In this document: positions 33,101 through 50,829 of the stretch, piece by piece
How the letters are laid out: the number at the start of each line of letters is the position of its first letter
Position numbering within the stretch: position 1 is the first letter of the stretch
NCBI GenBank assembly: GCA_937885575.1
Contig: CALABO010000016.1
Span: 4,392-68,391 of the forward strand
From: an uncultured Pseudomonadota bacterium
GTDB lineage: Bacteria > Pseudomonadota > Alphaproteobacteria > Rs-D84
Reading direction: 5' to 3'
DNA: 64,000 nucleotides
Translations under genes and position numbers: made by a program
Notes under the pieces: generated by a model
Told to the model about the DNA's origin: nothing
Databases searched by the model: none
What the model saw: the letters and a program-made list of their open reading frames with translations, nothing else

Positions 33101-36100
33101 CCGCCTTGTGAATTTGACGTAGTATCATAATTACAACTGACCACTAGATTTGAATAATTGGTGCCATTGGGACAAGCCGCACTGTTAGAAGGCACGCCAT
33201 TGGATTGTCCTGGGTAAGTGCAATTCACAGAACATATTGGCTTGCAATCTTGGGGAGTAACACATGAGTTGCTGACAAGAATGTATCCATCATCACAAGA
33301 ATTAACCGTCCAATGTGCGTAAAGGGTTGTATCGTTATAGGCGATATAATCCGTTTCTATACGTGTTCCGGTTTCTCCTGGTTGTGTCCACCAACCGTCA
33401 AATATATATCCTTCACGGGTCGGATCAGATGGGAAGTCATTCCACATTAATGTACCACTATTACCATTCCATTGGGCGTACCATGTGTAATCCGCTGGCA
33501 CCCCATCGTAATTTTTACCGGCGGCTATACCTTGGTTCGTGATGAACCATTGGTTATTGGTTTGTTTGATATATCGATAACCCGGGTCCTCCGAATCATA
33601 GTTTGCGTAAAAACCAAGAAGAGTAAAGTAAGCATTTTCTATCTCACTTGTTGTTACAGGATTAGAGCAATAAGTGTCATTATCACGATCGCAATGATTA
33701 AATGTTACGGTATAGTATTTATTTGGCAAAGATGTCAACGGATTGGTGGTTTCGGTCATTTCGTCTTCACGTTCATAATCGCGATATACACCCGTATCAT
33801 GTATCGTATACAGTTGATTTGAATATTCGCCGTGTGGACCGTTTTGCCCAACCGTGAAATTTTTGCTAAGGATTATTTCATATTGATTCTCAGCGGTACA
33901 TGTCGCGGTACATTCTGTGTTATATGTTCCCGTGCAGTGGAACTGCGGATTTGTATATCCCGTTTTACATTTCACATCTGGGGTGCATTCGTTATTTGTA
34001 ACAACCGTTGCATCGCACGACAATACACCGGTGCCCGAACTACACTGACATTGTTCCCAATGCGCATCCAGGGTCGCCGTTGTATCCCGATAATGTTCGT
34101 AATATTCTTCTAAATAGGCATAATATGTATTGGTCGTTGCATCATAGTACCGTGTAAACGTGTTTGTTCCCCCATCCGCAACGTCCCACCGCGCAAGTCT
34201 GTTTCCGGTCTTGGTATATATCGCGCCCTTGGTGGTGAAGCTTTGATCAAAGGTCAGCGATACCGGTTCATTTGTATTCGGTTGCCCGCCATTTGGTCTG
34301 TATACAAGTGGCAGGTTGCCATCTTCTTCGCAAACAGCACCATTTTGATGATAGTTTGTATCGCACCCCCACCACGCATAATAAGTTTTGTTGCCATAGT
34401 CCGTGGAACTTATGGTTTGGGATGAATCACATGTCGTATTTGATGCATCCGCGCCAGTGCACCAACCCCGGAACACGGCATGGGAACCAGCCTGCGCGCT
34501 CAACGTGCACTCAATGGTTGCGGTCGTTCCGTATTGGTAATTGTCCGGGGTGCAATTGGTGGTATCAACATTAAAGTGCAACGTCCTTGCCGTGTCATCG
34601 TATGTGATATCGTATTCCGTTGCGGTACAGAACGTGCCGGACAATGTTCCACTGGTTGGACCAGTCATGGTAAATGTTTGCGCACCATTGTGATTATAAC
34701 AACCCGGTTCATTATCGACACATAATGCACACACAATTGTGTATTCACACAGATCATTTTCAAAGGTCACAGATGTTATTTGTGCGTGCGGATTGGGGTT
34801 TGTCGGCAATTGCGCCTGGCACAAACCGGACCCAAGGACACATTCGGTCCCTTGGGGGATATAACCATTTGCCGTGTCACATTCATACAGTGCGGTAAAG
34901 GTTGGGTCAGATGAATCGAACGTTGTATATGTCCATGACAGAATTACCCCACCCGTGTAACCAACATAATGGGTGCCTGTATTATTCAATTCCCATTTTG
35001 GTTGACCGTTTTCAAGTGCAAGCACATAACCAGTATTTGGATTACACTCTGCGATTTTTTGTGCCCCACTGTATGCGACTTTGTACGATTGACCGTATGT
35101 TGCGGTATTTTCCATACTATAACCAGAAGTCGACGTTCCGTGATCGCCACAAACATATTTTACACTGTCCCAAGTTTGCGATGTGCAGGTGCTTCCGTTC
35201 CATGTTGTTCCGTTATCGCAATATTGCGGGTACAGGGTACGGTTCGTAATTTGATTTGCCGGGGTCATTCCAGACATAATGTCTGTAGCATTAGTAGAAT
35301 CCAATCCCAGCAGATATTCAACATACCTGGTACCACCGCTCGGTGTATCATAATAACCCTTGAACAACGGGTCGGCGCTGGCGTTGGCACTTGGCTCTGG
35401 CGCAGCATCAGTCGGATAGATTATGAATGTATAGTTTGGTTCATTGCCCGTTCCGGTGTATTGACCCGGCCCCATAATATGACTCCAGATTTTACCGGAA
35501 CTGTTGCTAAGGTAATACGAGGAACTCACATAAGCAGCATTGCGAATACCAACAATGTGACGTGTACCCGCCGCCGTTGTGGGGCTGTCTTTCTTCATAA
35601 ATGTTACCTGTGACGACATCGGCTTAAACGCCATCGCCCCAGAACCGGTCAGCAATTTCGGACAATACGCAACATCGGCGGCGTTTTCACCGCAAACGTC
35701 AAGTTCCGGATTCGTCGCGCGATTCCGCCAATTTCCATAGAATTCTATTTGATTGTGGTTGTTTTCCACAATATCCGCCACACTGAAATCGCCATATGAT
35801 AAATTCGCGGATCGGCATTCCACATCGCTGGTCCCGTTGTCACCGTTACATACCCGGTAACACTGGTCCGCGCCCCAGTTATAGCCCGCGATACTGGTCC
35901 AGCCGCCACCTAACTGTGAACAAGGCACACATGCGTTTGCATTCGGATCCCAGTAATCACCATTCGGACACACCACGCAATCATCTTTGTTTTCGTTCAA
36001 GTGATAACGCTGATCCGTGCATTCCCATTTCGCATAGACATTTTTATCAGCACACGGGGCGGCGTTTGATAATTCTAGTGGTAAATCACAAGTTTCCAAA

Positions 36101-39100
36101 TTGGAATCTGTACACCACATTACAACCTCGCCGATATATTCATTATTCGCATTTTTAAGCCGCGGCACACCACTTATCGATGTGTCTGGGCTGGCATTAC
36201 ATGTATAAGAATCTGGCATACTGGTACTCTGATTCGATGGCATTTCCAGTGTGTTTCCGGCGGGCGTGATACTATTGTTGGTTGTCGGCATTTTAAGATA
36301 TGTTATGTTGTATGTGTTTGCCGCCCCCCAAATCGCAGTAAAGGTCTTGTTTTCTGTATAGGCCCACTCAAATTCCCCCGCATCCCCCGCAAGATGGGTG
36401 TCGGTTGAATTGGAAACCGCCCACCATCTGAATTGAAGATTACCATAATTGGTGCATCCTTCTGGCTGTGCCGGAACAATTCGGGCGCCAGCATATATAC
36501 CTGTTACGGGATTTGGCGATATAGACGGTGTCCCCCCACCATCACCGCAGGAATACGTCAGGGTATAGGTCGGATCGTCAGTATAAATCGGCCACAAGTT
36601 GCGGGAATACTGCGACCTTGTATCTGGGCTCATATTATTTTGGGCTGGGTTCAGATTTTTTGCAAACTGAATTATACCATTTGCATTATCTGCCGTTAAA
36701 TTCCTTGCACTGACTAATTCTGTTGCATCTGTTTCTGGATAGCCGTATCCAGCAAAGGTTTGGTGTTCGCGCGACATGGCCACGGGCGCCGTTTCCGCTG
36801 GATATGTAATAAATGTATAACGGTATGTTCCAAGTTCTGTTGTGATTTCTGGACCTTGTTGACCGACGCCCACAACCTGGCTCCAGGCAAAACCATCGGC
36901 AAGCGACAGACTGGTGCCACCGGCCCGATTTCCGATTATATAACGCGATTCGTTTTCATCTTGGGCGGTGTTGTTAAACCTTACCGCCGCCGCCATGGGT
37001 TTCTGGGGACCAATACTCGGGTTACTTGAAGCCAACAGCCCAAGCGGACATTTCGTGGCACCAGTGGCAGAACGACAAGTATAAATATTTTGCCGTTCAT
37101 TACCATAGAATGAAATCTGACGACCGGTTCCCCCATTTGTCGTAACAAATTGTTCAAAACCGTGCCCAGATGGTGTAGTAATCGCGGCACATTCCGTGAT
37201 GTCGTCATTCGTATCTGTGCCACAATTACGATAACACTGATCAATGCTCCATGTATACCCTTCCTTGCTGGTCCAATTGGGCCCTAAGATATCCGCACAT
37301 GTTTTACATGAATTGGTTCCAGGATCATAAAATTGACCCGCGTCACACATTTCGCAATTACCTGTTTGCGGATTAAGATGATATAAATCATCGCATTCAT
37401 ATTGTGCATAGAGTGTGACGTTGTCCACCGGCGCCCATGTATCATGGCCATAATCCGTCACGCTACCGTTAACATTAAATATCTCATTACCCGTTCCATC
37501 AACCGCGGTATTATATCCAACGAAGTGTGCATTTGTTTTTGTTGGAATTCTACCCACAACACTTGGGGTTATTTGGTCACCGCCGCACTCTGTGCCACCA
37601 TACCAACCCGTCACACCAGAAACCTTGGAAAAACGACCATTATTTCCACCGTTTGTTGGTGAATTCTGTTCACCGTTCGTCGTATCATCGAAACTTACAC
37701 TGCGGCATGCAACGGACCATTGTGCGGTACAGGTGATGTTTTCGGATACTGTTACCTGACAAGATTGGTTTGTCCCGCACGAATATACTACGGTGTTTTC
37801 ATCATCAACACATGTCCATCCGGCGAAATCATGACCGGCCCATGTTGCCGTTGACGGTAATGTGATAGTGCCCGTTCCCCAATGTGCAACCCATGTTCTT
37901 TGATCGTTGGTATTATTCTCATCGTAAGTTTTTCCGGCGGCTATACCATCACTGGTGATATACCCCTTGCCATCATATGGGTCTATATATTTTTCGGGGT
38001 TTAATGTAATGTTTTGATAATACCCCATAAAGTCAAGATTCTCATCAATGTTTGCATAATTGTTAGCTCCATTGTAACCATATATTGTACCATTGTAAGT
38101 AAACGATGCACCAGTACCATCATGTGTCGAATCGGGATAAATGGTTATATTGATAGTCTTTTGTGGTGGTGTTAGGGGGTTGGCGTTGGGTTCGTGATCC
38201 GGCAACATTTTTAATGTTCTTGCCGAATCAAGATATACACCAATGCTTTTCCTGGTATAAAGATAGTCCGAAGGATTGCCATCGGTTCCACCATTTTGAT
38301 CCAATATAATCACAAAATCTGTCTGACCCCAGTTTGCGGTAAAGTAGCAATTGTTACTGTCGTATGTCCAGGTGCCGAACGTTGGATCATTTGTGTTATA
38401 TGGTCCCGAATTAGCCCCGGCACATGTAAATGTCCAGTTTTGGAATGTCCATGCACCAAACCCGCCATTTGGTTTACAATTGTTGTCCAAGAAATCTTGA
38501 ACCGTAACATTACCGCCATTAAACGGATCAAATTGACCGGCAACGTTATAGGTTTGACCGTATGTAGCACTGGAATCCGTATAAACATCGGCACCCGGTT
38601 TGATGTCGCCGCAACGATATTCAACCCTGTATGTTTTTAAATGCCACATACTCTTGTCCAAAATAAATTCTATTTCCGTCAATGGTGTGGTCGTGATATA
38701 TTGCCAATCGGCGGAAGACAATGTTTCGTTCGGCCCATATTCACCATTCGGATTGGTTGAATTACCACTATAATCTTGTAAATTCCACACATAATCATTG
38801 TCTAACTCATACCCAGTAAATGCGCATGGCACATTGTGATTACCCGTTCCAACAGATTTAACAAGGTACGCGGCACCATAAGTTGCGTCATCATTGAATG
38901 TATGGGTGTCTGGTTCACCATCAACAGGTGAAACACAGGTATATTTTACATCGATTTTGTCACCAACACAATCACCATTGGCATTTGGAGCATAACCATC
39001 AACACAAGTATACTGTGCATACAATACTGTGTTACCATTTATCGTCCAATCAGATCCACTGTTATTACCAGTCGTTAAATTACCGCTGGCATTAAAAATT

Positions 39101-40731
39101 TGTCTATTCGGTGTTGGGGTTTCATAGTAATACCCAGTAAATGTTGCATGTGCTTTCCATGGCAGATGTCCTATGACATTTACTTGATTCGCACCACTTC
39201 CTATTTCTATTTTGTCGCTACACTTACTATCTGAATACCATGCTGTGTTGTTATATTTTTTATAGAAAGACGTATGTGTACCAGGCGTGGAAGCCGGATA
39301 TCCGCTTGGGTGCCCACCATTAGTCTCATCATCAAAACTAACTTCATAGCAGTTATCTTCAAAAACAGGTTTAAATGTTTGATGGCCACATCCCCATGTA
39401 AGTTCATCATGTTCGGGATCATTATGATTATATACAATTCCCCCAGACCCGAGTGTCCAACCAATAAAGGTTTGTCCATTCTGACCCTGACAACTAAAAT
39501 CGGCAATAATGTAATTACCGTAAGATTCTGGATGATTCGTGTCTGTGATTACATTGGCACCATCATCGCAATCGTACATAGCGTTCCAAACTTTCGGTTC
39601 ACATGCGCCGCCAACAAAAGTATAACATTGCTCATCCTTGCAACCATCACAATTCCATTGACACCAGTGTGCTTCTGTAAGATCGTTATCTGGGGCTAAT
39701 ATTTCTATGTTATTGTTGTCGTAACAATGTCCCTGATTATCCTCGTATTCTGTCCCATATATAGGAACGATTGGTGAATAAAACCCTGTCACACCTTCGG
39801 CACATTCGTCTGTACTATTGTGTCTTTGCGTACACGTTTCTGAGCAACTCTTGGTGCATGTATGCTGGTTGCCATATCCACCAGGGCTGGTAAAGCCTTC
39901 GGCACAAGGTATACACTCATCTGTTTGGCTATTATACCAATAATTCTGGGCACACCCGGCATTTTCATAACGTGCATAAAGGGTGATGGTATTACCACTA
40001 ATTCCACTAATATTCGTTGCATTGTTATAATTTAATTTACCGTACATATTATTATGGTAGGGTCCTATGCGAATGCTACCGCCCGTTTGGCTATCAGAAT
40101 ACCCAAGGAATGTGTATCCTTCCCGGGTTGGTGCCGTCGGCGTTTGAAACACCGGATAAAACACCGCATAATTTCTAGGACTATTTGGATTGTTAAGGCA
40201 ATCCGCACATTCGGTGGTTTTTTGGGTGCTCCACACCGTACCAAATCCAATGTAAAACGTACCCAATGAGGTATTATTATGGTCTACGAAATTAACCGTT
40301 TTCCAATTTGCGGAACACGTAGTATCTTTACCACAATCAAACACTTCTGCACAGTAATTTCCAATATTACTGCATGTAAGGCCGTTAACTTTAACCAATG
40401 AATTATGTGTTTCATCACCAAATCGGTAAATAAACGTCGTAGAATTGGAGGGGATACCGTATGTGCCACCATTTTGGAAGCTGGAATTCATGTCTGTACA
40501 GGTACCAGAGCACGCACCGTAACATAAATCTCCACTAAAGTTATAGTTGCCCATACTGTAGGGATAACTTGGAAAATCCTCGGCACATTTATTACAATCC
40601 TCTTCTGTCCTGCCGAGACCGTAGTAGTTATCCATCCAACAAAATCCTTCTGCCCATACACTGCCGATTTGGGCAGTCGCAAGCGTCGCAAAAAAGCCCA
40701 GAAAACCAAGGAATCTAGCGAATTTCTTCAT
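21151..40731 (-). CDS. Giant secreted repeat protein (6526 aa) with a Sec signal peptide, many Listeria-Bacteroides/InlB-B-repeat-like modules and eukaryote-like ephrin-receptor/furin-like cysteine-rich repeats; putative surface/host-interaction protein
   Basis: Uninterrupted 19,581-nt ORF with an AGGGAGAAAATATG RBS. N-terminal signal MKKFARFLGFLGFFATLATAQIGSVWA. More than 20 modules ending GY.F.GW...(T/N).LYA.W (e.g. TREGYIFDGWW...TTLYAHWT). More than 15 paired CxxC units such as CEMCDAGQFYDPGTNSCKTCADI and CPAGTYGPNGLECESCPEGYTSPAGS. About 8 tandem C.C(T).GTG...C modules in the C-terminal third. Composition is strongly biased (G, T, N, Y, C, W). Confidence 0.85.
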   Translation of the reverse strand: MKKFARFLGFLGFFATLATAQIGSVWAEGFCWMDNYYGLGRTEEDCNKCAEDFPSYPYSMGNYNFSGDLCYGACSGTCTDMNSSFQNGGTYGIPSNSTTFIYRFGDETHNSLVKVNGLTCSNIGNYCAEVFDCGKDTTCSANWKTVNFVDHNNTSLGTFYIGFGTVWSTQKTTECADCLNNPNSPRNYAVFYPVFQTPTAPTREGYTFLGYSDSQTGGSIRIGPYHNNMYGKLNYNNATNISGISGNTITLYARYENAGCAQNYWYNSQTDECIPCAEGFTSPGGYGNQHTCTKSCSETCTQRHNSTDECAEGVTGFYSPIVPIYGTEYEDNQGHCYDNNNIEILAPDNDLTEAHWCQWNCDGCKDEQCYTFVGGACEPKVWNAMYDCDDGANVITDTNHPESYGNYIIADFSCQGQNGQTFIGWTLGSGGIVYNHNDPEHDELTWGCGHQTFKPVFEDNCYEVSFDDETNGGHPSGYPASTPGTHTSFYKKYNNTAWYSDSKCSDKIEIGSGANQVNVIGHLPWKAHATFTGYYYETPTPNRQIFNASGNLTTGNNSGSDWTINGNTVLYAQYTCVDGYAPNANGDCVGDKIDVKYTCVSPVDGEPDTHTFNDDATYGAAYLVKSVGTGNHNVPCAFTGYELDNDYVWNLQDYSGNSTNPNGEYGPNETLSSADWQYITTTPLTEIEFILDKSMWHLKTYRVEYRCGDIKPGADVYTDSSATYGQTYNVAGQFDPFNGGNVTVQDFLDNNCKPNGGFGAWTFQNWTFTCAGANSGPYNTNDPTFGTWTYDSNNCYFTANWGQTDFVIILDQNGGTDGNPSDYLYTRKSIGVYLDSARTLKMLPDHEPNANPLTPPQKTINITIYPDSTHDGTGASFTYNGTIYGYNGANNYANIDENLDFMGYYQNITLNPEKYIDPYDGKGYITSDGIAAGKTYDENNTNDQRTWVAHWGTGTITLPSTATWAGHDFAGWTCVDDENTVVYSCGTNQSCQVTVSENITCTAQWSVACRSVSFDDTTNGEQNSPTNGGNNGRFSKVSGVTGWYGGTECGGDQITPSVVGRIPTKTNAHFVGYNTAVDGTGNEIFNVNGSVTDYGHDTWAPVDNVTLYAQYECDDLYHLNPQTGNCEMCDAGQFYDPGTNSCKTCADILGPNWTSKEGYTWSIDQCYRNCGTDTNDDITECAAITTPSGHGFEQFVTTNGGTGRQISFYGNERQNIYTCRSATGATKCPLGLLASSNPSIGPQKPMAAAVRFNNTAQDENESRYIIGNRAGGTSLSLADGFAWSQVVGVGQQGPEITTELGTYRYTFITYPAETAPVAMSREHQTFAGYGYPETDATELVSARNLTADNANGIIQFAKNLNPAQNNMSPDTRSQYSRNLWPIYTDDPTYTLTYSCGDGGGTPSISPNPVTGIYAGARIVPAQPEGCTNYGNLQFRWWAVSNSTDTHLAGDAGEFEWAYTENKTFTAIWGAANTYNITYLKMPTTNNSITPAGNTLEMPSNQSTSMPDSYTCNASPDTSISGVPRLKNANNEYIGEVVMWCTDSNLETCDLPLELSNAAPCADKNVYAKWECTDQRYHLNENKDDCVVCPNGDYWDPNANACVPCSQLGGGWTSIAGYNWGADQCYRVCNGDNGTSDVECRSANLSYGDFSVADIVENNHNQIEFYGNWRNRATNPELDVCGENAADVAYCPKLLTGSGAMAFKPMSSQVTFMKKDSPTTAAGTRHIVGIRNAAYVSSSYYLSNSSGKIWSHIMGPGQYTGTGNEPNYTFIIYPTDAAPEPSANASADPLFKGYYDTPSGGTRYVEYLLGLDSTNATDIMSGMTPANQITNRTLYPQYCDNGTTWNGSTCTSQTWDSVKYVCGDHGTSTSGYSMENTATYGQSYKVAYSGAQKIAECNPNTGYVLALENGQPKWELNNTGTHYVGYTGGVILSWTYTTFDSSDPTFTALYECDTANGYIPQGTECVLGSGLCQAQLPTNPNPHAQITSVTFENDLCEYTIVCALCVDNEPGCYNHNGAQTFTMTGPTSGTLSGTFCTATEYDITYDDTARTLHFNVDTTNCTPDNYQYGTTATIECTLSAQAGSHAVFRGWCTGADASNTTCDSSQTISSTDYGNKTYYAWWGCDTNYHQNGAVCEEDGNLPLVYRPNGGQPNTNEPVSLTFDQSFTTKGAIYTKTGNRLARWDVADGGTNTFTRYYDATTNTYYAYLEEYYEHYRDTTATLDAHWEQCQCSSGTGVLSCDATVVTNNECTPDVKCKTGYTNPQFHCTGTYNTECTATCTAENQYEIILSKNFTVGQNGPHGEYSNQLYTIHDTGVYRDYEREDEMTETTNPLTSLPNKYYTVTFNHCDRDNDTYCSNPVTTSEIENAYFTLLGFYANYDSEDPGYRYIKQTNNQWFITNQGIAAGKNYDGVPADYTWYAQWNGNSGTLMWNDFPSDPTREGYIFDGWWTQPGETGTRIETDYIAYNDTTLYAHWTVNSCDDGYILVSNSCVTPQDCKPICSVNCTYPGQSNGVPSNSAACPNGTNYSNLVVSCNYDTTSNSQGGYYEPTESITKCRKTENCDLITASTCRYTPNCTTGYIWNNDANDCIPDSNQTYTIKFICEEGGNPIVDSQTVHYGENITVPSNSACTNNPGYSYSRWKATTTGNHPTTLNAQSSTYQYPWEQTHGETFIADWNDGNVYHVNLHAYSCDDSTQTGTFGNSGVQELWEKYGVNWYRTNVGGTLSNPITELTTQQLPTRSGWTFVGYNNLAGDARVRNIGGIWSVSPATLIQNDEDWCAIWSQCNPNEYWNNGVCVTCNTATNGDFPLGEANATSIYQCYRQCSICTPVCPQTEGVNYCEFGNNSNMNGNLYYPGTGTCQPNYEQNCPITVLHCLPGYTPNGNNTACVPNNYMITLNSHIDGFNGHASSPEVLYTKYGPNGGAYLDNGYVYLMNDEQSLYAVPEKSADVILNGNGGNVIWNGYSSSTATLTATFDFQGFYPSVYGGSQYIFDTGYISTNGNIAAQQNQSNSTVWHAQWQDGSITLPDAQRQCYTFNGWWTDMYNGVSAGNANMPYTPTGATTNLYAHWTPGTYSITYHNGNAIYSGCSTTSYTFGNAFAINCSITPQAGSHKVFNGWCTNPELTAGCTQNPVISNTDCGDKDYYAWWGCESGYNLENGVCVPNASELCPARTLPNNAHATFVSGALNSNGTECIYTLKCEACTGCNNNNYTCYTHDNSATNGGIFTVNGSIGDASVLNNVSCNATEYDVYYRCDSSTAPGTLSGTQATYGEPYYVESNGTTITCQSNDQLFNGWTFNGNNQVYYPGTSNYMINSWNYCNITPIFTASYGQCEAGQIYVPSLGKCRPSCPVPCTWAGYPANPAQCPTPQYPAGATCWYLEGNPAAQTGYVPEYDPNACLNPMTDATITPQTCNVDPTQDPICPEYQHWENNTCEWNTYYVTLDSNNGIEGSNFVSKLFEKYTIGWSRTDNRFTSSLNLDPDELPSPSETCKVFKGYFNRRSGGQQMIQADGYVSSDGYQPLPSTTITDNNQKWYAQYIDNPGTFTIKFRCSANGGDIYTYTVHMGDANLTAPAATVCSGVAFNQWKGSTHPEILLDAGSYFAWNHCFDEVFVPDTKAVYHVDLNENGGMFPSNEYQELWYAVDLGWYKNAGLTTQITSIPGDSLPTKQGSNFNGWLDSTTQAQRGNFSGANWALPASISANETWDAQWGPCAAGQYWDNGVCKSCSDATGGAYPLADANATNVNQCYKICSICLTNGCPTVHGANCVYNPNDPSVQNNGKEYNNGTQTCVSNTNPTPNCPYMITDCDLGWVPAQDGQSCVEDEKHTITLESHIIHGVSSDPEVLYTWHNRGVYLYSNYTGEMRANQNPLSENPLNYAIVTFNLNGQGASLIWNGQTYMGSMDANVLFDYQGFWKSVNGSPRYIDVDGYINGSGIAAGTGYTDDATWHARWQSRTLGTISSSGNDLPVPTRPGFVFDGWYDLPMGGNQVDSSSLVNNDMTVYAHWSDVIYEVKLVSDRNNCQPSNNTPTKLYEKYNVGWNRAATGTFDPNLTLTDDELPTPNAGYEFKGYYDALSGGDRVIRPDGRVEQEPNYTDNNHTWYARCGRPTGPFTITFRCGAGEDPLPNYTQSVQNGGTVRVPPTSACSNAGYTFTSWMGNHNTTFTARDTEYTATWSDVYANEDFTPDWNNGNVYYVTLAQTDATEPGIEILYEKYDNGWGYTANGPFNVTRLSGSQLPRRSGYVFAGYKYNDVQMGYVSNGQWRLPDPTVLTDNNQVWEPDWSQCEQGEYWDGNKCYPCPDGFTDNPHAIGAEQCYGNCEYDCQDSGCPSPLPVGMQSCAPNHSDYPQWGIKYNRPGATCLPQGQQSLPICPNDIICNNGYDLVGTECRDNRYTIALNSNLYNDNGTLANPSTLYTWFNHGVYRDYNRTYMMTPNDYPLESGTPSTYATVTLNGNGAMFNWHDMYGGQLSDNVDFVFDGFYDTTGAEIDPVIGINRYITGAGQSIGTTAQNNQTWQARWLNGSVDLPGEDIMSRDGYTFAGWWNACDGGALVSMGNQTIAVSGDRTLCAHWSGKSYTVTYNCNSEDGQGGSATDNQLAYQNTSYTVRENFIPCSKPATETTRAHEFENWKFNLNSNTYWPGDSILWIFTDDNPTLNAHYKECSDGSYFDGSCKTCPTGYDHSNINATSPQHCYKTCNVEIPCTQPVSDCPNEEGVLTCVYPQLTSSVSGAQYYGSNECVHDVPSTQYCEPFTIMCKPGYTPDYYLSTDVGVQCTKLADHEITLDANCGGDVTPGQEKLYTTENTGVYLNPARTNQYLMTISDHPLSVDKLPNCVVTATFNHCDNDDPNCYGATITDRGVNLTFNGYYKTASGVTQYTDARSVGGQLKSYITQDGMDDGKGYTTDATWYAHWNASQVGTDKWPIDPTRDACGVTYNFVGWWTDATGGQQVQPGTPINNDVTWYAHWCEGCPANGIANGSCTVNSCVATINCNNDYTWDTNSCSCVLSPDPRFTLTYKPNGGTPTQPRTQSLRLNETFTTLGGDTFSKSGEVLCRWVSNATTYTFPDGVAELSTEYTYLNENDTTLLADWVACQCTSGTGVQGCSVSVVNNACVPTVTCMPGYVPNELPTCTGECNTNCNASCRQCEPGTYQDGNECKSCDNGFTSGVAATSCYGETITVDWDENGGNPIDQNGSCQFCVDGNGCTSPACESCGTHPANNLTLAAAPTHNNNAMQFLGWKLATGNDLYSAGTNVMCTYNNVGVYSGISTHKIKAQWNQCQCINPLNPHVAGCTPIVTNDTCAYINWCDTGYELDQPTAYTPAAVCNPITSNITYDCGDGTGMPVTATDTAEYDADYTVKNEGGANCQKTGFNFAGWRFNGDGQLHQAGDRITWNYTSDQTFTAEYTNIQCASDEILIGNDCVKCNCTIGTGATNTSCGSLSTISNTCEWTHPVACLTGFVNPAWNCTGTGNTSCIASCGICPANQVEVSGDCTDCRCTPDTTTGAVSCGTMSISDNMCNWGPATCGLGYGYPNIICEGSSNQSCTVKCQVCPAGTYGPNGLECESCPEGYTSPAGSTSIEDCYGNGNPYTITYQAAGGVNTATGVTDQPVIQNVTYNSGFVTKQGTIFSKTNSIITVWDTVSGGAYPELNHWYQYNTAGDTWLDAHWESCECTTGTGAESCGTLSTAGNTCNWTNPVCQDGYVSPNMQCTGTGNTNCTLTCGECQEGEVIVNGECIPCTCTTGNGAASCTPGATANNTCTAVGQCLVGYGNEDGNANVVCNDTNCVVSYNECGDGWVSNENCQCEICPANTYQSGNTCVPCQNGYTSPAGSSSADACVPGAHTIHYLSNNGTNETYNQGVYYGQSFTTEGGTRFTYTNHIMTHWNVESGSSSTFTNGTATLSGNYVYNDATDTTLSAQWAQCTCDADGCTTYATNSNECACNASEESCPDGYIYGGCECNGTNCAPICTLSQSNAIYNCGTGTGIPPVSELVGYGTPYTIKANATVYGCSRENSTFAGWEFDGDQQIHAAGDTVTWNYTTDKNFRAVYCNNCLPEDHCTLDIPNPGECVVTCHTGYEWNSTLQKCVAKTYPNENGITYKPNGGTPNQNYTQSVTYDAPFTTLDWSAEHYRKPRHIMTQWAVESGGVGTFDSGYANLGTEYTYKTDGATVLAADWTECAADKISLNNQCQQCNCTAGTGTTSCGTLSTDDDTCAWGPVSCQTGYVNPTLDCSDDTTSCTASCTQCGNKQVEVNGTCTDCECEINGDGVNSGCGFVSNNGNICNWNPTTCKLGYGYPELTCTDSNFNNDCTASCTICPAGQYGDDGLTCKDCPDGKTSLPGATSKKECFIDPNSCAQDEHIEHGECVSNTRACSIPNATSAARIWNPAIGTYGPCTVIECDEANGYHESGNACVRDTCTVAHGSAESEQVGPSSWECFVTKCDPGYEPSSDYKSCVECANRYVDGDPNKDVAVSSYVSECEIAACMYQGQKYALQNGECVSICETETDETGTKVWDERTNKCVRTCKPGYKMW

Positions 40732-42814: not shown

Positions 42815-44086
42815 ATGTCGGAAATCGTTAAAATTTTAAGTGATGAACAAAAAATCGCCTTTGACACCATTGAAAACACCCATCAAAATGTGTTGATTTT
42901 GGGCAGTGCCGGAACAGGAAAATCCACTTTTGTTAACTATTTAAAATCCGCATCTAAGAAAAGAATCATATGCGCCTGTCCGACCGCCGTTGCTGCCCTT
43001 AATATCGGTGGGCAAACGATACATTCGCTGTTTCAGATTCAACCGCGCGACTTTGTGTTTCCGGAATTTTTGAAACTAAAAGCCAAAGTGCGAAACATTT
43101 TGACCGCGACTGATATCCTTGTCCTGGACGAAGTGTCGATGATTTCGCCCGATGTTATGGACGCGATGGACATTTTGGCGCGCCAGGCCCGGCACAGTAC
43201 TGAACCCTTTGGCGGGATTCAGGTTGTGGCGATTGGCGACCTGTTTCAATTGCCGCCGGTGATAACGCGCGACGCGGGGCAGTATTTTAAGCAGGCGTAT
43301 GAACACGAACGCGCGTATTTCTTTGATAGCAATGTGTATCGGCGGGCGGATTTCGTACGGTTTAACTTTGATTTAGTATATCGGCAAAATGATACGGGGT
43401 TGTTGACGAACCTGAACGCGCTACGCGCGGGTGATGTCGGTGCGCTTTCGTTTTTTAACACTTGCCAAATTGATGATGCGGCGCGGCGCGACAATGCCGT
43501 TATAATTACGCCCTTTCGCGCGGTTGCCGAACGCATAAATGCCGAACGATTGGATGCAATTGGCGCGCCGTTGGTGCGATATATGGGTGAACTGTCGGGG
43601 AACTTTGCCGAACGCGATGTGCCCGCGCCGATGAATTTGGAACTGAAAGTTGGGGCGTTGGTGGTCTTTGTCAAAAACGGCGACAAATGGCACAATGGGT
43701 CGATGGGCGTGGTGCGGTCACTGGGGGCGCGCGATATTACGGTGGAATTATTGGGTGCGAACCGCGATGTCGTTCTGGTGCGACCCGAAAAGTGGCAAAA
43801 AATTGAATACACGCGCGATGAAAACGAACGTTTGCAAGAAAACGAAACCGGCGCGTATAAACAGTTTCCGCTGACGCTGGGGTACGCAATGACGATACAC
43901 AAAGCCCAGGGCAAAACATTGGACACCGTGATTGTGGATATTTCGCGCGGGGCGTTCGAACATGGCCAAACCTATGTTGCGTTGTCACGCACACGGACGG
44001 CCGGCGATATGCATATTGCACGACCGCTGTCGCCACGTGATGTTATATTTGACCCGCGGGTGTTGGAATTTGTAAACAGGGGTTAA
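42815..44086 (+). CDS. PIF1/RecD-family ATP-dependent DNA helicase (423 aa)
   Basis: Walker A GSAGTGKST, Walker B VLDEVSM, motifs GDLFQLPPV and ...TIHKAQGKTLDTVIVDI typical of Pif1/RecD SF1B helicases. Confidence 0.75.
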   Translation: MSEIVKILSDEQKIAFDTIENTHQNVLILGSAGTGKSTFVNYLKSASKKRIICACPTAVAALNIGGQTIHSLFQIQPRDFVFPEFLKLKAKVRNILTATDILVLDEVSMISPDVMDAMDILARQARHSTEPFGGIQVVAIGDLFQLPPVITRDAGQYFKQAYEHERAYFFDSNVYRRADFVRFNFDLVYRQNDTGLLTNLNALRAGDVGALSFFNTCQIDDAARRDNAVIITPFRAVAERINAERLDAIGAPLVRYMGELSGNFAERDVPAPMNLELKVGALVVFVKNGDKWHNGSMGVVRSLGARDITVELLGANRDVVLVRPEKWQKIEYTRDENERLQENETGAYKQFPLTLGYAMTIHKAQGKTLDTVIVDISRGAFEHGQTYVALSRTRTAGDMHIARPLSPRDVIFDPRVLEFVNRG

Positions 44087-44116
44087 AAAATAACGGCGAT
44101 TGCCGTTATTTTTTAT
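44085..44116. terminator. Bidirectional rho-independent terminator (A6, taacggc-gatt-gccgtta, T8)
   Basis: Lies between the convergent helicase and ACP-like genes. Confidence 0.7.
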
Positions 44117-44670
44117 TTCTTTTTTTCCGCCCGCGCCCGAAGTGCCATTTGCGACCGGATTTGATCAAATAAATTTAATGCTTGCGCGACCGGCATTTTT
44201 AGTATTTCACCGACCGTAGTTTGCAACAAATCCGCCGGCACATTTTTGGTTGGTTTTGTTGCGACGGGCTTTTTTGCGGTTGTCTTCGAACCCGCATCTT
44301 TGGGTGTCGATTGCTTTTTTGTTGCGGCGGGCTTTTTTGCGGTTGTCTTCGAACCCGCAACTTTGGATACCGGCTGCTGCGTAGATTTCACGGGCGGAAG
44401 CCAATCAGGGTCGGCCTGCTTTTCTTCAATCAACCTAACCACATCGCCAACGGCCACTATGTTTTCCTGTTGATTGTCCGGGATACTTAGATTATATTCT
44501 TTTTCAAACTCCATCATTAATTCAACCGTATCAAGAGAATCCGCCCCAAGGTCGTTTGTAAACTGGGCAACCATTGTTACCTCAGCCGGGTCAACGCCAA
44601 GTTTTTCAACAACAATTGGAACGATTTGTCTAAGAATTGCTTGCTGTCCTTCTGATATTTGTTCTGTCAT
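44113..44670 (-). CDS. Acyl carrier protein fused to a C-terminal Lys/Ala/Thr-rich (histone-H1-like) tail (185 aa)
   Basis: N-terminal 85 aa are a canonical ACP ([16 protein letters not shown], phosphopantetheine Ser in DSL). The C-terminal 100 aa are low complexity, with a 21-aa tandem repeat [10 protein letters not shown](A/V)ATK... encoded by a 63-bp direct DNA repeat. Confidence 0.75.
44267..44392. repeat. Tandem direct repeat, 2 x about 63 bp, inside the ACP-tail coding region
   Basis: gggcttttttgcggttgtcttcgaacccgca(t/a)ctttgg... occurs twice in tandem. Confidence 0.7.
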
Positions 44671-44729: not shown

Positions 44730-45116
44730 TTAAATTTCTTTCTTCATCAAAACCGCATCCACACCGTCATAGTATTTCGGGCGATGGCCGTTTTGGATAA
44801 ATCCGCATTTTTTATAAAGTGCAATTGCCGGCGCGTTTTCGGCGGATACCTCCAAAAATATCTTTTTAACACCGGCCTTTTTGATTTCGTGTTCCATCAA
44901 AGTAAGCATCGCGGTTGCGATTCCCGCACCGCGCGCGGCGGGGTGAACACCGATTGTGATAATTTCCGCTTCGTCGCAAACAGTGCGCCAAACGATAAAA
45001 CCGTTTTCAGACGCCACAATTTCACAACCGGATTTTTTTAGGTCACGGAAATCGTTCGCCGTCCACGGTTTGTGCGGGAAGCAAAGTTTATGTAAATCGG
45101 CAAGTTTATTTAGCAT
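44730..45116 (-). CDS. rimI: GNAT-family N-acetyltransferase, RimI-like (128 aa)
   Basis: Acetyl-CoA binding motif GVHPAARGAGIATAML...; sits in the same cluster as the upstream TsaB-like gene (tsaB-rimI arrangement). Confidence 0.7.
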   Translation of the reverse strand: MLNKLADLHKLCFPHKPWTANDFRDLKKSGCEIVASENGFIVWRTVCDEAEIITIGVHPAARGAGIATAMLTLMEHEIKKAGVKKIFLEVSAENAPAIALYKKCGFIQNGHRPKYYDGVDAVLMKKEI

Positions 45117-45118
45117 TT

Positions 45119-45316
45119 TTACCTGGATATTTGACTACGCCGTATTGATTCGCATACGCCGGCAACATACCCGGCAACATACCCAGCAAATATACATCTT
45201 TCAACGTAACTGTAAATTTTATGATCATATATATCATGCAAATACCTTTCGGCTTTTGCCGGTGATTTGCAGTTTTCCAATTTAATACGTTTAACAATTT
45301 CTTTTTGTTTCAACAT
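45119..45316 (-). CDS. Small hypothetical protein (65 aa), N-terminus paralogous to the next ORF
   Basis: MLKQKEIVKRIKLE resembles MLKKNQITQRLNLN of the 45346..45699 ORF, and the upstream DNA is similar (catRYtatttaYcctttttSYttcttcggc). Confidence 0.25.
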   Translation of the reverse strand: MLKQKEIVKRIKLENCKSPAKAERYLHDIYDHKIYSYVERCIFAGYVAGYVAGVCESIRRSQISR

Positions 45317-45345
45317 GTTATTTACCCTTTTTCTTCGGCATTTAT

Positions 45346-45699
45346 TTACCGGTGTGTCTTACCATATAACCATTCCATAAGAACAAACAAGTTTTTACCA
45401 TTCGTGCATTGCATATCTTCAAGAGCAAAATGTTTCCACCCTGTTCTTTTATATCCGGAACTGAATTTATAATATTGGTAAACACTGCTCTTGGGGCTAA
45501 ATTTTACCGTCCGAACCACCCAATTACCGTACCCAAAAGTATACATTTCGCCATCGCCGTCTTTATCATATTGAATGCAGTTTTTATAAATTTCCATCGC
45601 CCGGCGCAGGACGCGAACATCTATTAACCCCGACTTATCAATTGGCACTTCTTGTAAGTTTAAATTTAACCTTTGTGTTATCTGATTTTTCTTTAACAT
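45346..45699 (-). CDS. Hypothetical protein (about 117 aa from MLKKNQ)
   Basis: AT-rich ORF inserted between tsaB and rimI. The track ORF extends to 45765 and overlaps tsaB. Confidence 0.4.
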   Translation of the reverse strand: MLKKNQITQRLNLNLQEVPIDKSGLIDVRVLRRAMEIYKNCIQYDKDGDGEMYTFGYGNWVVRTVKFSPKSSVYQYYKFSSGYKRTGWKHFALEDMQCTNGKNLFVLMEWLYGKTHR

Positions 45700-45700
45700 A

Positions 45701-46246
45701 CTATTTATCCTTTTTGCTTTCTTCGGCGTAACTTGGACGCAGATACATTGGCACGACCGGTTCAATATTCCCGTCCGCCAATTTTTTGCGAACTATATCA
45801 AGCCCCAATTTCAAATCAAACGGCCGGTGGCCAACGGTGCGCGGGCATTTCATTTGTTCGCTCTCTACCTGCTCTATCGTCATGGTGCCGGGCGTGTGTT
45901 GGGGCGATGCCACAAAGAAATCGCCACGGCCGGAATCAATCGCAACGAACGCGTCGGGCGTTGCCACCAAATAAAGGTCAAACGCACTGATCCCCACGAC
46001 CGGAATATTCAATCCTATTGCAATCCCCTTGGCATAGGCGATACCCATGCGGATTCCGGTGAAACTGCCCGGGCCGATTACAACACCGATCGCGGTTATA
46101 TCGCGCCAGGTCGCGCCGCATTCGGTCAAAAAACTTTCCGCCGCGGCCGGCAATGCCAATGATTGCTTTTCCACCATGAGTGTTTTATGATGATCGTCCA
46201 AAACAAATTCCAAACCCGCACCAGATGTGTTTATTATGAATATCAT
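45701..46246 (-). CDS. tsaB: tRNA threonylcarbamoyladenosine biosynthesis protein TsaB (YeaZ), 181 aa
   Basis: Inactive Kae1/YgjD paralog fold: VVIGPGSFTGIRMGIAYAKGIAIGLNIPVVGIS. Confidence 0.75.
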   Translation of the reverse strand: MIFIINTSGAGLEFVLDDHHKTLMVEKQSLALPAAAESFLTECGATWRDITAIGVVIGPGSFTGIRMGIAYAKGIAIGLNIPVVGISAFDLYLVATPDAFVAIDSGRGDFFVASPQHTPGTMTIEQVESEQMKCPRTVGHRPFDLKLGLDIVRKKLADGNIEPVVPMYLRPSYAEESKKDK

Positions 46247-46632
46247 TTTTGTTGTTCCCGTTGCCGTAGTCTTTTCATTTTATTGTATATAAGTCGCGCT
46301 GGCAACCCTTCAATTTCTATATTTTTTCCGTTCGGTGCATGCGGTAATACCCCTTTGTTATTGAATATTACGGTGAATGTTATTGGTACACTCGCTTGAT
46401 TCCCGGCGGTTCCAATAAGGTTTGTCCAAAATGTTGTCGGGACGTATTTATTGGCAACATAGTGCCTATCACATCGGTGTGATTCTATTATTGTTTCAAA
46501 ACGCGACTTTTTGAGCGGTATTTTGATTTGATACAAATTGCCCCAACTGTATGGTGTCATTTTATTGGTGTCTTTGTTTTGATATAATTTTTCTATATCA
46601 CGACAAATTTGTATAGCTTGAATAATTTTCAT
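46243..46632 (-). CDS. Hypothetical protein (129 aa) immediately downstream of the Lon-like ATPase
   Basis: ORF with a 4-nt overlap with tsaB and a 13-nt gap to the Lon-like gene. No recognisable motif and no GPSAG or other Lon peptidase motifs. Confidence 0.45.
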   Translation of the reverse strand: MKIIQAIQICRDIEKLYQNKDTNKMTPYSWGNLYQIKIPLKKSRFETIIESHRCDRHYVANKYVPTTFWTNLIGTAGNQASVPITFTVIFNNKGVLPHAPNGKNIEIEGLPARLIYNKMKRLRQREQQK

Positions 46633-46644
46633 TGTTTTTACCCC

Positions 46645-48408
46645 TTATATACTAACACCGAACCCAATCCGCTTTGAAAATCCGGCGGATTGATGCAGCG
46701 ACAATAAATCGTCAATTTTTTCGATTGTAAATTCCGTCGGCACATCTTCGCCATCGTTTTCAAGCAACGCCCGGCGCAGGATTGCGGTAATTTCGCGTTG
46801 CAGGCCCCGCACGCCCGATTCCCCCGTGTATTTGCGAATTATATGGCGAATTGCATCGTCAGAAATCGTTATTTTATCCACCGCCCATCCGGTATCCGCC
46901 GCGGCGCGCGCGATTAAATGTTCGCGGGCAATTTGCACCTTTTCGTCTTCACTGTATCCCGGAATTTCGATGATTTCCATGCGGTCTTTTAGCGCACTTG
47001 ATATATTCAAACTGTTCGCCGTGGCAATAAACAAGACATTCGACAGGTCAAAATCCACCTCTAGGTAATGATCGCGGAACGCCCTATTCTGTTCCGGGTC
47101 CAGGACTTCGAGTAATGCGGATTCCGGGTCGCCGCGCCAATCGCGCCCCATTTTATCGATTTCGTCCAAAACGATAACCGGATTGTTCACACGCGCACGC
47201 TTTAATGCGTCCATAATGCGCCCGGTCTGCGCGCCGATATAGGTTTTGCGGTGGCCCCTAAAATGTGCCTCGTCCGAAACGCCGCCAAGTGAAATGCGAT
47301 GATATTTCCGCCCAAGCGCGGCCGCGATAGATTTACACAGCGATGTTTTTCCAACGCCCGGCGCGCCGACAAAGCACAAGATACTGCCCCTATTGGAACC
47401 GGTTTTCTTCATAACCGCAATGTGTTCCAGTATGCGTTCTTTGACGGGGCGCATGCCGGAATGTTCGCTGTCCAATGCCCGGCGCGCGGCGTTCAGGTCA
47501 ATTGCCGGCGTATCGGCCCTGTCCCACGGCATGGCAAGCAATTCTTCCAAATATGTTTTAATAAGGCCACCTTCGTTCGACATTGGCGACATGTTGCGCA
47601 TACGCTTCCATTCCGTTATCGCCTTTTCTTTGACATCCGCCGGCATAGACGATTTTTCGATTTTTTTACGTATGGATGTGGCATCTTCCGCATCATCTTC
47701 ACCCATTTCTTTTTGAATTGCACGCATTTTTTCTTGCAATATCGCCTCGCGCCGGCCCTGTTCCATTTGCATACTGATACGGCGATTTATGCTGTCTTCG
47801 ACCTTGGACGTTTCTTGGATAAGTTTTACCTTTTCATACAGCATAACCATTTTGTCGTACCACGACGGGGTGGTCAAAACGCGGATTGCGGTGTCGGTAT
47901 CAATCTCCATCGTTTGCAGGACGGAATCAACAAACGCCGGCATCGGGTAATTCTGAATCACGCCGCGCAGTTTATCGATTTTTAATTTACGAAAACTGGA
48001 AATACTCTGAATCGTTTCAAAAATCTTTTCCCGCATAAGGACCGTGCGTTCGTCCGCAATATCATCGCCCATGGCGATCGTTTCCGTATCTGCACAGAAA
48101 ACCCCGTCAACAACAGTTATATTATTCAACTTTACAACATTTGTGGTGCGAATTATCGCATGGATTGCGCCGTCCGGCATGCGTAAAATCTGAACAATAT
48201 CGCCGATTGTGCCGTATTCGTAAATATCGCCCGGCGCGGTCGGATATGCGGAACCGTGTTGTGGCACGATAATAACCCGCTGAGTCAATCCGGCGGCGGA
48301 TTCAATACATGATATAGAAGTTGGATTATCAATATAGAGAGGCACCGTCATATCCGGATGCACAACTAAATCCCGACAAGGTAGAATGTATTCTTTCATA
48401 GCAATCAT
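46645..48408 (-). CDS. Lon-like ATPase: LON N-terminal substrate-binding domain plus AAA+ module, lacking the S16 peptidase domain (587 aa)
   Basis: N-domain (LPCRDLVVHPDMTVPLYIDNPTS), coiled-coil region, Walker A GAPGVGKTS, Walker B VIVLDEIDK, sensor and arginine-finger regions. The ORF stops (...AGFSKRIGFGVSI*) where the proteolytic domain would begin. Confidence 0.75.
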   Translation of the reverse strand: MIAMKEYILPCRDLVVHPDMTVPLYIDNPTSISCIESAAGLTQRVIIVPQHGSAYPTAPGDIYEYGTIGDIVQILRMPDGAIHAIIRTTNVVKLNNITVVDGVFCADTETIAMGDDIADERTVLMREKIFETIQSISSFRKLKIDKLRGVIQNYPMPAFVDSVLQTMEIDTDTAIRVLTTPSWYDKMVMLYEKVKLIQETSKVEDSINRRISMQMEQGRREAILQEKMRAIQKEMGEDDAEDATSIRKKIEKSSMPADVKEKAITEWKRMRNMSPMSNEGGLIKTYLEELLAMPWDRADTPAIDLNAARRALDSEHSGMRPVKERILEHIAVMKKTGSNRGSILCFVGAPGVGKTSLCKSIAAALGRKYHRISLGGVSDEAHFRGHRKTYIGAQTGRIMDALKRARVNNPVIVLDEIDKMGRDWRGDPESALLEVLDPEQNRAFRDHYLEVDFDLSNVLFIATANSLNISSALKDRMEIIEIPGYSEDEKVQIAREHLIARAAADTGWAVDKITISDDAIRHIIRKYTGESGVRGLQREITAILRRALLENDGEDVPTEFTIEKIDDLLSLHQSAGFSKRIGFGVSI

Positions 48409-48494: not shown

Positions 48495-48731
48495 TTAACG
48501 ACGGCGACCACCGTTGTTGAATCCGGGTTTTTGTTGGGCAACGCCACTGCGACGTGACAAATAACGCGCGCCAATCAAGAACAACCATTCAAGCGACAGA
48601 CCCGCCAAGAAAGCCAATTTGCCTTCATCCATGGAAATCCAGCCCAATACATAAACAAACTGTGCAATAAATGAAATATATAATGCGCAGAATATACCAC
48701 CAAAGAATATTTTTTTCATTTTTCCTAACAT
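48495..48731 (-). CDS. Small hypothetical membrane protein (78 aa)
   Basis: Two TM helices; located just downstream of ssrA. Confidence 0.3.
   Translation of the reverse strand: MLGKMKKIFFGGIFCALYISFIAQFVYVLGWISMDEGKLAFLAGLSLEWLFLIGARYLSRRSGVAQQKPGFNNGGRRR

Positions 48732-48769: not shown

Positions 48770-50829
<2,060 letters not shown>

Follow-up and report, generated by a model that had tools for sequence, protein, structure and literature searches.

What does a cell keep a Lon protease for once its peptidase domain is gone? Lon is the textbook AAA+ protease, with unfoldase and peptidase in one chain, and ClpXP is the textbook two-component design. The question is raised by a stretch of 64,000 nucleotides (the window) from an uncultured alphaproteobacterium of the Rs-D84 lineage (assembly GCA_937885575.1, contig CALABO010000016.1, positions 4,392 to 68,391). 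Here, a gene that we call lonS (46645..48408, longest open reading frame (ORF) 587 aa) encodes an apparent orthologue of LonA that lacks the S16 peptidase domain; coordinates are window positions, and all features lie on the minus strand unless indicated. An earlier note, made from the letters of this DNA, had described a Lon-type ATPase without peptidase, possibly working with a downstream 129-aa protein and possibly belonging to a defence or regulatory module. Its coordinates and ORF content match our ORF analysis exactly, and the peptidase-less ATPase proved genuine. The working partner and the module did not survive the analysis, and the note had missed two features, an invariant C-terminal IGF motif and the positional orthology to normal Lon.

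We determined the domain content of lonS by profile searches, alignment and modelling. Pfam recognised the Lon N-terminal substrate-binding domain (LON_substr_bdg, PF02190, residues 8–192, 47833..48387, E=4.9e-21), the AAA+ large subdomain (AAA, PF00004, residues 344–480, 46969..47379) and the small AAA+ subdomain or Lon lid (Lon_lid, PF22667, residues 507–550, 46759..46890, E=3e-15), the latter containing the sensor-2 GVR, whereas Lon_C was not found in the 587-aa protein. AlphaFold2 (AF2) modelled the N-domain with a per-residue confidence score (pLDDT) of ~90. The translation contains the Walker A motif GAPGVGKTS (47341..47367), the pore-loop-1 TYIG (47233..47244) and the Walker B motif VIVLDEIDK (47152..47178), and the sensor-1 Asn and the Arg finger are likewise located inside the AAA+ large subdomain. 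Residues 8–549 aligned to residues 13–557 of E. coli Lon (PDB 6u5z, E=4e-129), so that the N-domain, coiled coil, AAA+ module and lid, together with all ATPase and pore-loop residues, are common to LonA and lonS from end to end, while the entire S16 domain with its Ser-Lys dyad is missing. The match to the NCBIfam lon model TIGR00763, endopeptidase La, was limited to model positions 2–563 of 795 and remained below the family cutoff (532.9 bits versus 608.05); the score for NF008053 was 464.9, with a cutoff of 891. Lon was nevertheless by far the best family, and lonS falls outside the ClpX, ClpA and ClpC families (ClpA model, 35 bits versus a cutoff of 993). Because its relatives begin with MKEYILP, the true start of lonS is probably Met4 (48399), which would yield a product of ~584–585 aa.

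We then searched for an S16 domain in the surrounding DNA. When the domain of the closest full-length Lon was used as tblastn query, the 64-kb window and the related loci returned nothing (best E=0.33). An S16 hidden Markov model (HMM) trained on 87 full-length Lons detected every positive control at E values of 1e-71 to 1e-90 but no S16 domain in the window or the 85 clade loci, each translated in all six frames (best E=5.1). Moreover, only 399 nt separate the stop of lonS from the start of the next conserved gene, tsaB (45701..46246; t6A complex subunit, assigned by TIGR03725 with 86 bits and by synteny), and an S16 domain of ~200 aa cannot fit into this distance.

The short Lon is not confined to the window. 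Its carriers are Candidatus Enterousia and its Rs-D84 relatives among the Alphaproteobacteria, whose genomes measure ~0.75–1 Mb. For Ca. Enterousia, an order Rs-D84 lineage, genomes of 0.75–1.0 Mb have been reported that lack the TCA (tricarboxylic acid) cycle and respiration and do not accumulate pseudogenes (PMC12306168); the Enterousia literature examined does not mention protease content. All 120 homologue clusters listed (72–100% identity) were devoid of Lon_C, their full-length members measuring ~585 aa. A scan of one genome per GTDB species yielded 289 matching stretches; the best 80 loci derive from metagenome-assembled genomes (MAGs) of rumen and gut from many hosts, named Candidatus Enterousia, uncultured Alphaproteobacteria or 'Rickettsiales'. 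One source, OZ007020.1 (L051), is a circular chromosome of 958,618 bp. In the 84 loci with a complete ORF, the stop was always at the same position and the protein ended in '...K[KR]IGF[GSD]xxx*' (84/84). Orthologues of normal Lon length were not encountered in the short clade, where every member was short.

The short Lon is also strongly selected. Compared with nine relatives, the whole-gene dN/dS ratio (omega) of lonS was 0.04–0.08, with values of 0.05–0.18 for the N-domain, 0.04–0.10 for the coiled coil, 0.03–0.07 for the AAA+ module and 0–0.08 for the C-terminal tail. The housekeeping gene obg gave comparable values (0.02–0.09), and tsaB was less constrained than lonS. Across 43 sequences of the short family, the Walker A Lys, the Walker B Asp-Glu, the pore-loop-1 Tyr, pore-loop-2, the sensor-1 Asn, the Arg finger and the sensor-2 Arg were invariant. 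lonS is thus a conserved family under purifying selection as strong as that acting on obg, and the earlier view of a peptidase-less Lon-type ATPase rather than a frameshift product is borne out by the ~585-aa length in every relative, by purifying selection and by the intact catalytic residues. Judged from these sequences, lonS almost certainly combines a Lon N-domain and a coiled coil with an AAA+ translocase that is fully competent, and lacks S16.

To trace the origin of the short form, we extended the comparison to distant Lons. An exhaustive representative search uncovered two further short forms, P0130 (593 aa) and P0131 (580 aa), at 50–52% identity, and a single full-length Lon near the short clade, P0133 (769 aa, 50% identity), ordinary bacterial Lons being ~36–42% identical. 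P0133 has an intact Lon_C and is encoded in the arrangement 76-aa ORF / lon / tsaB / rimI, in which the lon stop and tsaB overlap by 4 nt and RimI shares 52% identity with that of the window. tsaB is the conserved downstream neighbour of lon in the short clade and the full-length sister alike; in the case of P0131, it follows after a 4-nt gap. A neighbour-joining tree computed from 562 shared columns with 200 bootstraps recovered the short forms as monophyletic (200/200) and P0133 as their sister (200/200). The shared lon-tsaB-rimI slot, the sister position of P0133 and the monophyly of the short clade together indicate that S16 was deleted once and in situ. As far as gene order and phylogeny can tell, the short Lon is the positional orthologue of normal LonA, and its peptidase was lost in the ancestor of the clade. 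Given this orthology, lonS is likely the only Lon of these organisms. A metagenome scan for relatives of P0133 returned generic Lons only (42–46% identity).

In place of S16, lonS carries a short C-terminal tail of ~15 residues. The last helix comprises residues 562–573, and the tail HQSAGFSKRIGFGVSI (residues 572–587, 46648..46695) was modelled by AF2 as coil with a pLDDT of 28–34, as compared to ~90 for the N-domain. Embedded in this flexible segment is the motif K-R-I-G-F (residues 579–583, 46660..46674). The consensus K-[KR]-I-G-F was present in 84 of 84 loci, one of them having N-K, and in 119 of the 120 protein clusters listed. The single exception, P0002 (588 aa, 95% identical, seven member sequences), reads ICF, its tail being KRICFGVGI as compared to KRIGFG, which reflects a sequencing error or else a natural replacement of G by C. 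The motif is retained even in P0130 ('GRKIGFRTTSVRI') and P0131 ('GKKIGFSERF'), which share 44% identity and whose flanking residues have drifted. Its distance from the last helix is fixed to the ATPase body at 10–11 residues, whereas its distance from the C-terminus varies between 4 and 7 residues, indicating that the motif is placed relative to the ATPase body and not to the terminal carboxylate. The tail is almost certainly located at the face of the ring where the translocated polypeptide exits.

The truncation point of lonS coincides with strand beta1 of S16 ('VGxVxGLAWT'), and we therefore compared the tail with this strand in 99 full-length Lons. At the two candidate homologous tripeptides, these proteins mostly carry TGL or NGL, or VGV or IGV, and only 8–9% of them fit the (L/I/V)-G-(F/L) pattern of ClpP-binding motifs; the K-[KR]-IGF tail as such is not found in full-length Lons. 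These data indicate that the short clade altered the site and subsequently fixed IGF. The sequences suggest that the 'xGL' or 'VGx' of the first beta-strand of S16 may have been exapted to give IGF. The low fraction of matching full-length Lons speaks against a plain inherited Lon linker, but this reading is rejected in part only, and exaptation from 'xGL' or 'VGx' is still likely. Taken jointly, we consider it close to certain that lonS is the clade's resident LonA, that S16 was lost in a single in-situ event, that the motor is intact and selected, and that the IGF tail is conserved.

A tripeptide of this type has a known function in AAA+ proteases. The defining feature of ClpP partners is a tripeptide, (L/I/V)-G-(F/L), that each protomer carries on a flexible element and inserts into the hydrophobic H-pockets of ClpP (PMC8745299). 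The same combination is found in lonS, with IGF residing on a flexible tail (pLDDT ~30). In E. coli ClpX, the corresponding loop, confirmed in PDB chains, reads 'GSGIGFGATV', and its IGF(G) is identical to the tail tripeptide of lonS. Like ClpX, and also ClpA and ClpC, lonS would be a hexameric unfoldase whose exit face exposes I-G-F(-G) in a flexible segment. Both Lon and ClpX are AAA+ rings of the HCLR clade. Their homology is limited to the AAA+ fold, as ClpX has a zinc-binding domain and carries IGF on an internal loop, whereas lonS has a Lon N-domain for substrates and a free C-terminal tail. HslU, PAN/Rpt and Mpa dock on a separate peptidase ring by a principle like the one proposed here, in that every protomer has a short, flexible peptide at its C-terminus that enters pockets of the ring. 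For the HslU C-terminal residues, HbYX and GQYL, however, it is the terminal carboxylate or position that matters, while the lonS motif is fixed to the body and lies 4–7 residues before the C-terminus.

These features suggest a model in which lonS acts as an unfoldase for ClpP. Substrates would be recognised by the Lon N-domains of the lonS hexamer and threaded through its Tyr pore loops. The hexamer would not degrade them itself but would insert its six IGF tails into the hydrophobic pockets on a ring of separately encoded ClpP, resulting in a natural hybrid of Lon unfoldase and ClpP peptidase. We advance the docking of IGF tails on ClpP tentatively, at somewhat less than even confidence, and the explanation as a whole, with the docking included, falls just a little short of an even chance. 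Possible, and to be viewed with more reserve, is the broader picture of a natural hybrid AAA+ protease, in which a Lon-derived unfoldase uses its exapted tail to dock on ClpP, so that in these ~1-Mb genomes one peptidase would serve the Lon-type quality-control and substrate repertoire as well as that of Clp. lonS may then be the organism's only Lon, and the variable small genes downstream of it may encode lineage-specific adaptors or substrates.

Several points weigh against docking on ClpP. We found no ClpP, no ClpX and no second full-length Lon in the 64-kb window or in the 10 kb on either side of lonS in 85 genomes. IGF comprises just three residues, and since 8–9% of ordinary Lons carry (L/I/V)-G-(F/L) at the homologous beta-strand, the resemblance may be partly inherited rather than adaptive. 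Furthermore, the IGF loop of ClpX is anchored at both ends, whereas the lonS tail is free; the conserved basic dipeptide preceding IGF in lonS is not a known ClpX feature; and one cluster (P0002) has ICF. Finally, human LONP1 exhibits a chaperone-like anti-aggregation activity that needs the ATPase but not the protease (PMC8368198), implying that a Lon ATPase can be useful without proteolysis and that a peptidase partner is not strictly required.

The main rival explanation dispenses with a peptidase altogether. Here, lonS would be a stand-alone ATP-dependent unfoldase or chaperone, active in remodelling, in disaggregation, as a holdase or in DNA-associated Lon functions, and its IGF tail would stabilise the hexamer in place of the S16 ring, mediate autoinhibition or bind another partner. 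Protease-independent, chaperone-like Lon activity is known from yeast Pim1. The intact ATPase and pore loops, the strong selection and the lack of any peptidase gene linked to lonS in 85 genomes are all in keeping with such a function, as is the ATPase-dependent, protease-independent activity of LONP1 (PMC8368198), which likewise exemplifies a Lon ATPase useful without proteolysis. LONP1 and Pim1 are, however, full-length enzymes or engineered active-site mutants, whereas in lonS the domain is naturally and permanently absent. With a stand-alone unfoldase, nothing specific accounts for the retention of K-[KR]-I-G-F in a disordered tail at 44–52% identity while its flanks drift, and the shift from TGL, NGL or VGV to a canonical ClpP-docking tripeptide is left unexplained. 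Unless the tail takes over the hexamer-stabilising role of the S16 ring, the motif remains without explanation, and we consider the stand-alone function, including the alternative roles of the tail, a serious but doubtful possibility.

Alternatively, lonS could be one half of a split Lon, with S16 encoded elsewhere and re-associating non-covalently, the tail being a remnant of S16 strand beta1 that complements the peptidase in trans. The truncation exactly at beta1 and the perhaps homologous relation of the tail to 'VGxVxGLAWT' speak for such a reading. Yet the halves of split genes are normally adjacent, and in most species tsaB follows within 3–20 nt; no S16 signal was present within ±10 kb of lonS in 85 genomes, and a search with the S16 domain of P0133 retrieved only fragments of ordinary Lons. 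We thus regard a split Lon as very unlikely. Two apparently free-standing S16 proteins, P0364 and P0321, were also considered and rejected, as they originate from frameshifted tig-clpP-clpX-lon clusters of unrelated, non-reduced organisms. In two long-read metagenome contigs (L086 and L087; ENA ERZ25039538 and ERZ25039542), frameshifts break tig-clpP-clpX-lon into several ORFs and give rise to spurious 'stand-alone S16' and 'Trigger-ClpP fusion' entries in the protein database.

We next considered whether lonS and the 129-aa ORF (46243..46632) form a two-gene module, possibly in defence or regulation, as the earlier note had proposed. The spacing is tight and co-oriented, with 12 nt between lonS and the ORF, whose stop overlaps tsaB by 4 nt. 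The ORF is truly coding, as reflected by an omega of 0.19–0.33, and has nine homologue clusters at 49–89% identity. A small ORF also trails the distant short form P0130. This 105-aa ORF is, however, unrelated to either of the two families that occupy the slot between lon and tsaB, namely the window-type family, present in 16 loci, and a second one without relation to it, present in 19 (hhalign probability 1.8%). Across L001–L085, the slot ORFs are 87–138 aa long, co-oriented and fast-evolving. In ~50 of 85 species (~60%), the slot is empty (gap 3–20 nt), including relatives whose Lon is 90–94% identical (lon-tsaB gap 9–20 nt). As the slot is empty in ~50 species and holds unrelated occupants elsewhere, the sequences mark it as a hotspot for accessory small genes, which could encode lineage-specific adaptors or substrates. 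The 129-aa ORF evolves ~10 times faster than lonS (dN), and in L004–L006, where Lon is 95% identical, the 129-aa protein is only 57–59% identical. Pfam, NCBIfam and PADLOC returned no match for it. An AF2 model could be computed, but with a pLDDT of 52 from just 10 sequences it is too poor for fold assignment and uninformative about a partnership.

On sequence grounds, the 129-aa ORF is a real gene, accessory and outside the conserved core machine. The suggestion that its product is a partner of lonS thus fails on three counts, namely its absence from ~50 of 85 species, its replacement by an unrelated family in 19 and its ~10-fold faster evolution, and the two genes are not conserved as a pair but distributed patchily over the 85 species. 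A role in defence or regulation finds no backing either, since PADLOC produced generic AAA+ matches only (best match for lonS, DolB with 44 bits in the generic AAA+ region, versus 533 bits for Lon) and the surroundings of lonS consist of the housekeeping genes obg, tsaB and rimI. As an obligate partnership, the two-gene module is largely refuted, and we would assign even less credence to it in any form than to a split Lon. An artefact or decaying pseudogene, arising by a sequencing frameshift or recent nonsense mutation in an ordinary lon, has the truncated length and nothing else in its favour and is practically excluded: a frameshifted lon by the negative tblastn and HMM searches in all frames, which left no S16 remnant, and by the 399 nt that offer no room, an assembly artefact by the identical length and tail in >80 independent MAGs from many different studies and assemblers, and a pseudogene by the omega of 0.04–0.08 in >80 independent genomes of a clade that does not accumulate pseudogenes (PMC12306168).

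Partial loss of function has been seen in other Lons. LonC of Meiothermus and other degenerate Lons have lost one of the two Lon activities, LonC having kept its protease while its ATPase is dead. lonS represents the reverse loss, with the ATPase kept and the protease missing. Public databases name the short Lons 'AAA family ATPase' or 'ATP-dependent Lon protease', and our full-text literature searches turned up neither a natural S16-less LonA nor a Lon bearing IGF. A Lon without peptidase that is selected throughout a lineage shows that the essential role of the Lon motor can be separated from its own proteolytic chamber. If, in addition, the IGF tail does dock lonS on ClpP, the Lon and ClpXP systems would be cross-wired in nature, the first such case, and AAA+ proteases would have a new architecture; it would also demonstrate by example how a fused protease becomes modular through exaptation of a three-residue motif. 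Such a finding would bear on the partner specificity of ClpP, on the logic of ADEP-type (acyldepsipeptide) drugs and on the minimal proteostasis set of a ~1-Mb genome.

Several features of the neighbourhood deserve mention. Located 86 nt upstream of lonS, a 78-aa hydrophobic ORF (48495..48731) is present in most loci at 52–95% identity and is possibly the first gene of the lonS transcription unit. The ORF is 76–78 aa in length, appears to encode a two-helix membrane protein and has no family match. A 76-aa ORF is also found upstream of the full-length sister Lon P0133, on the opposite strand and without detectable similarity to the 78-aa ORF of the window. A promoter-like site precedes the 78-aa ORF (49111..49084); the promoter and terminator scan was uninformative, with 17 promoter-like sites versus 10.8 expected.

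On the other side of lonS, the conserved lon-tsaB-rimI block ends with a rimI-like GNAT acetyltransferase gene (44730..45116), identified by Pfam and synteny. In the window, a 584-nt insertion (45117..45700) separates tsaB from rimI and overlaps an ORF of up to 139 aa (45346..45765) for which Pfam and PADLOC gave no match. As rimI directly overlaps tsaB in relatives such as L001 and L004, the insertion marks a second variable slot in the same operon. A PIF1-like SF1 helicase encoded on the plus strand (42815..44086), with weak RecD-like PADLOC matches, is the conserved convergent neighbour of lon-tsaB-rimI in all loci inspected (the window and L001–L005). Between the helicase and rimI, ORF 44113..44670 fuses an acyl-carrier-protein domain to a Lys/Thr/Ala-rich repeat tail of ~100 aa with a weak histone-H1-like match; it evolves fast (32–75% identity, omega 0.46–0.88) and is undetectable in several relatives. 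Farther away, a 580-aa single-chain acetyl-CoA carboxylase carboxyltransferase (7767..9509) combines the beta (Zn ribbon and Carboxyl_trans) and alpha (ACCA) parts. Finally, in this ~1-Mb genome, ~30% of the window is taken up by a single ORF of 6526 aa (21151..40731). It contains Listeria-Bacteroides repeat (Flg_new) domains and presumably encodes a giant protein of surface or adhesion type; versions with 2100–2700+ aa are located nearby in relatives.

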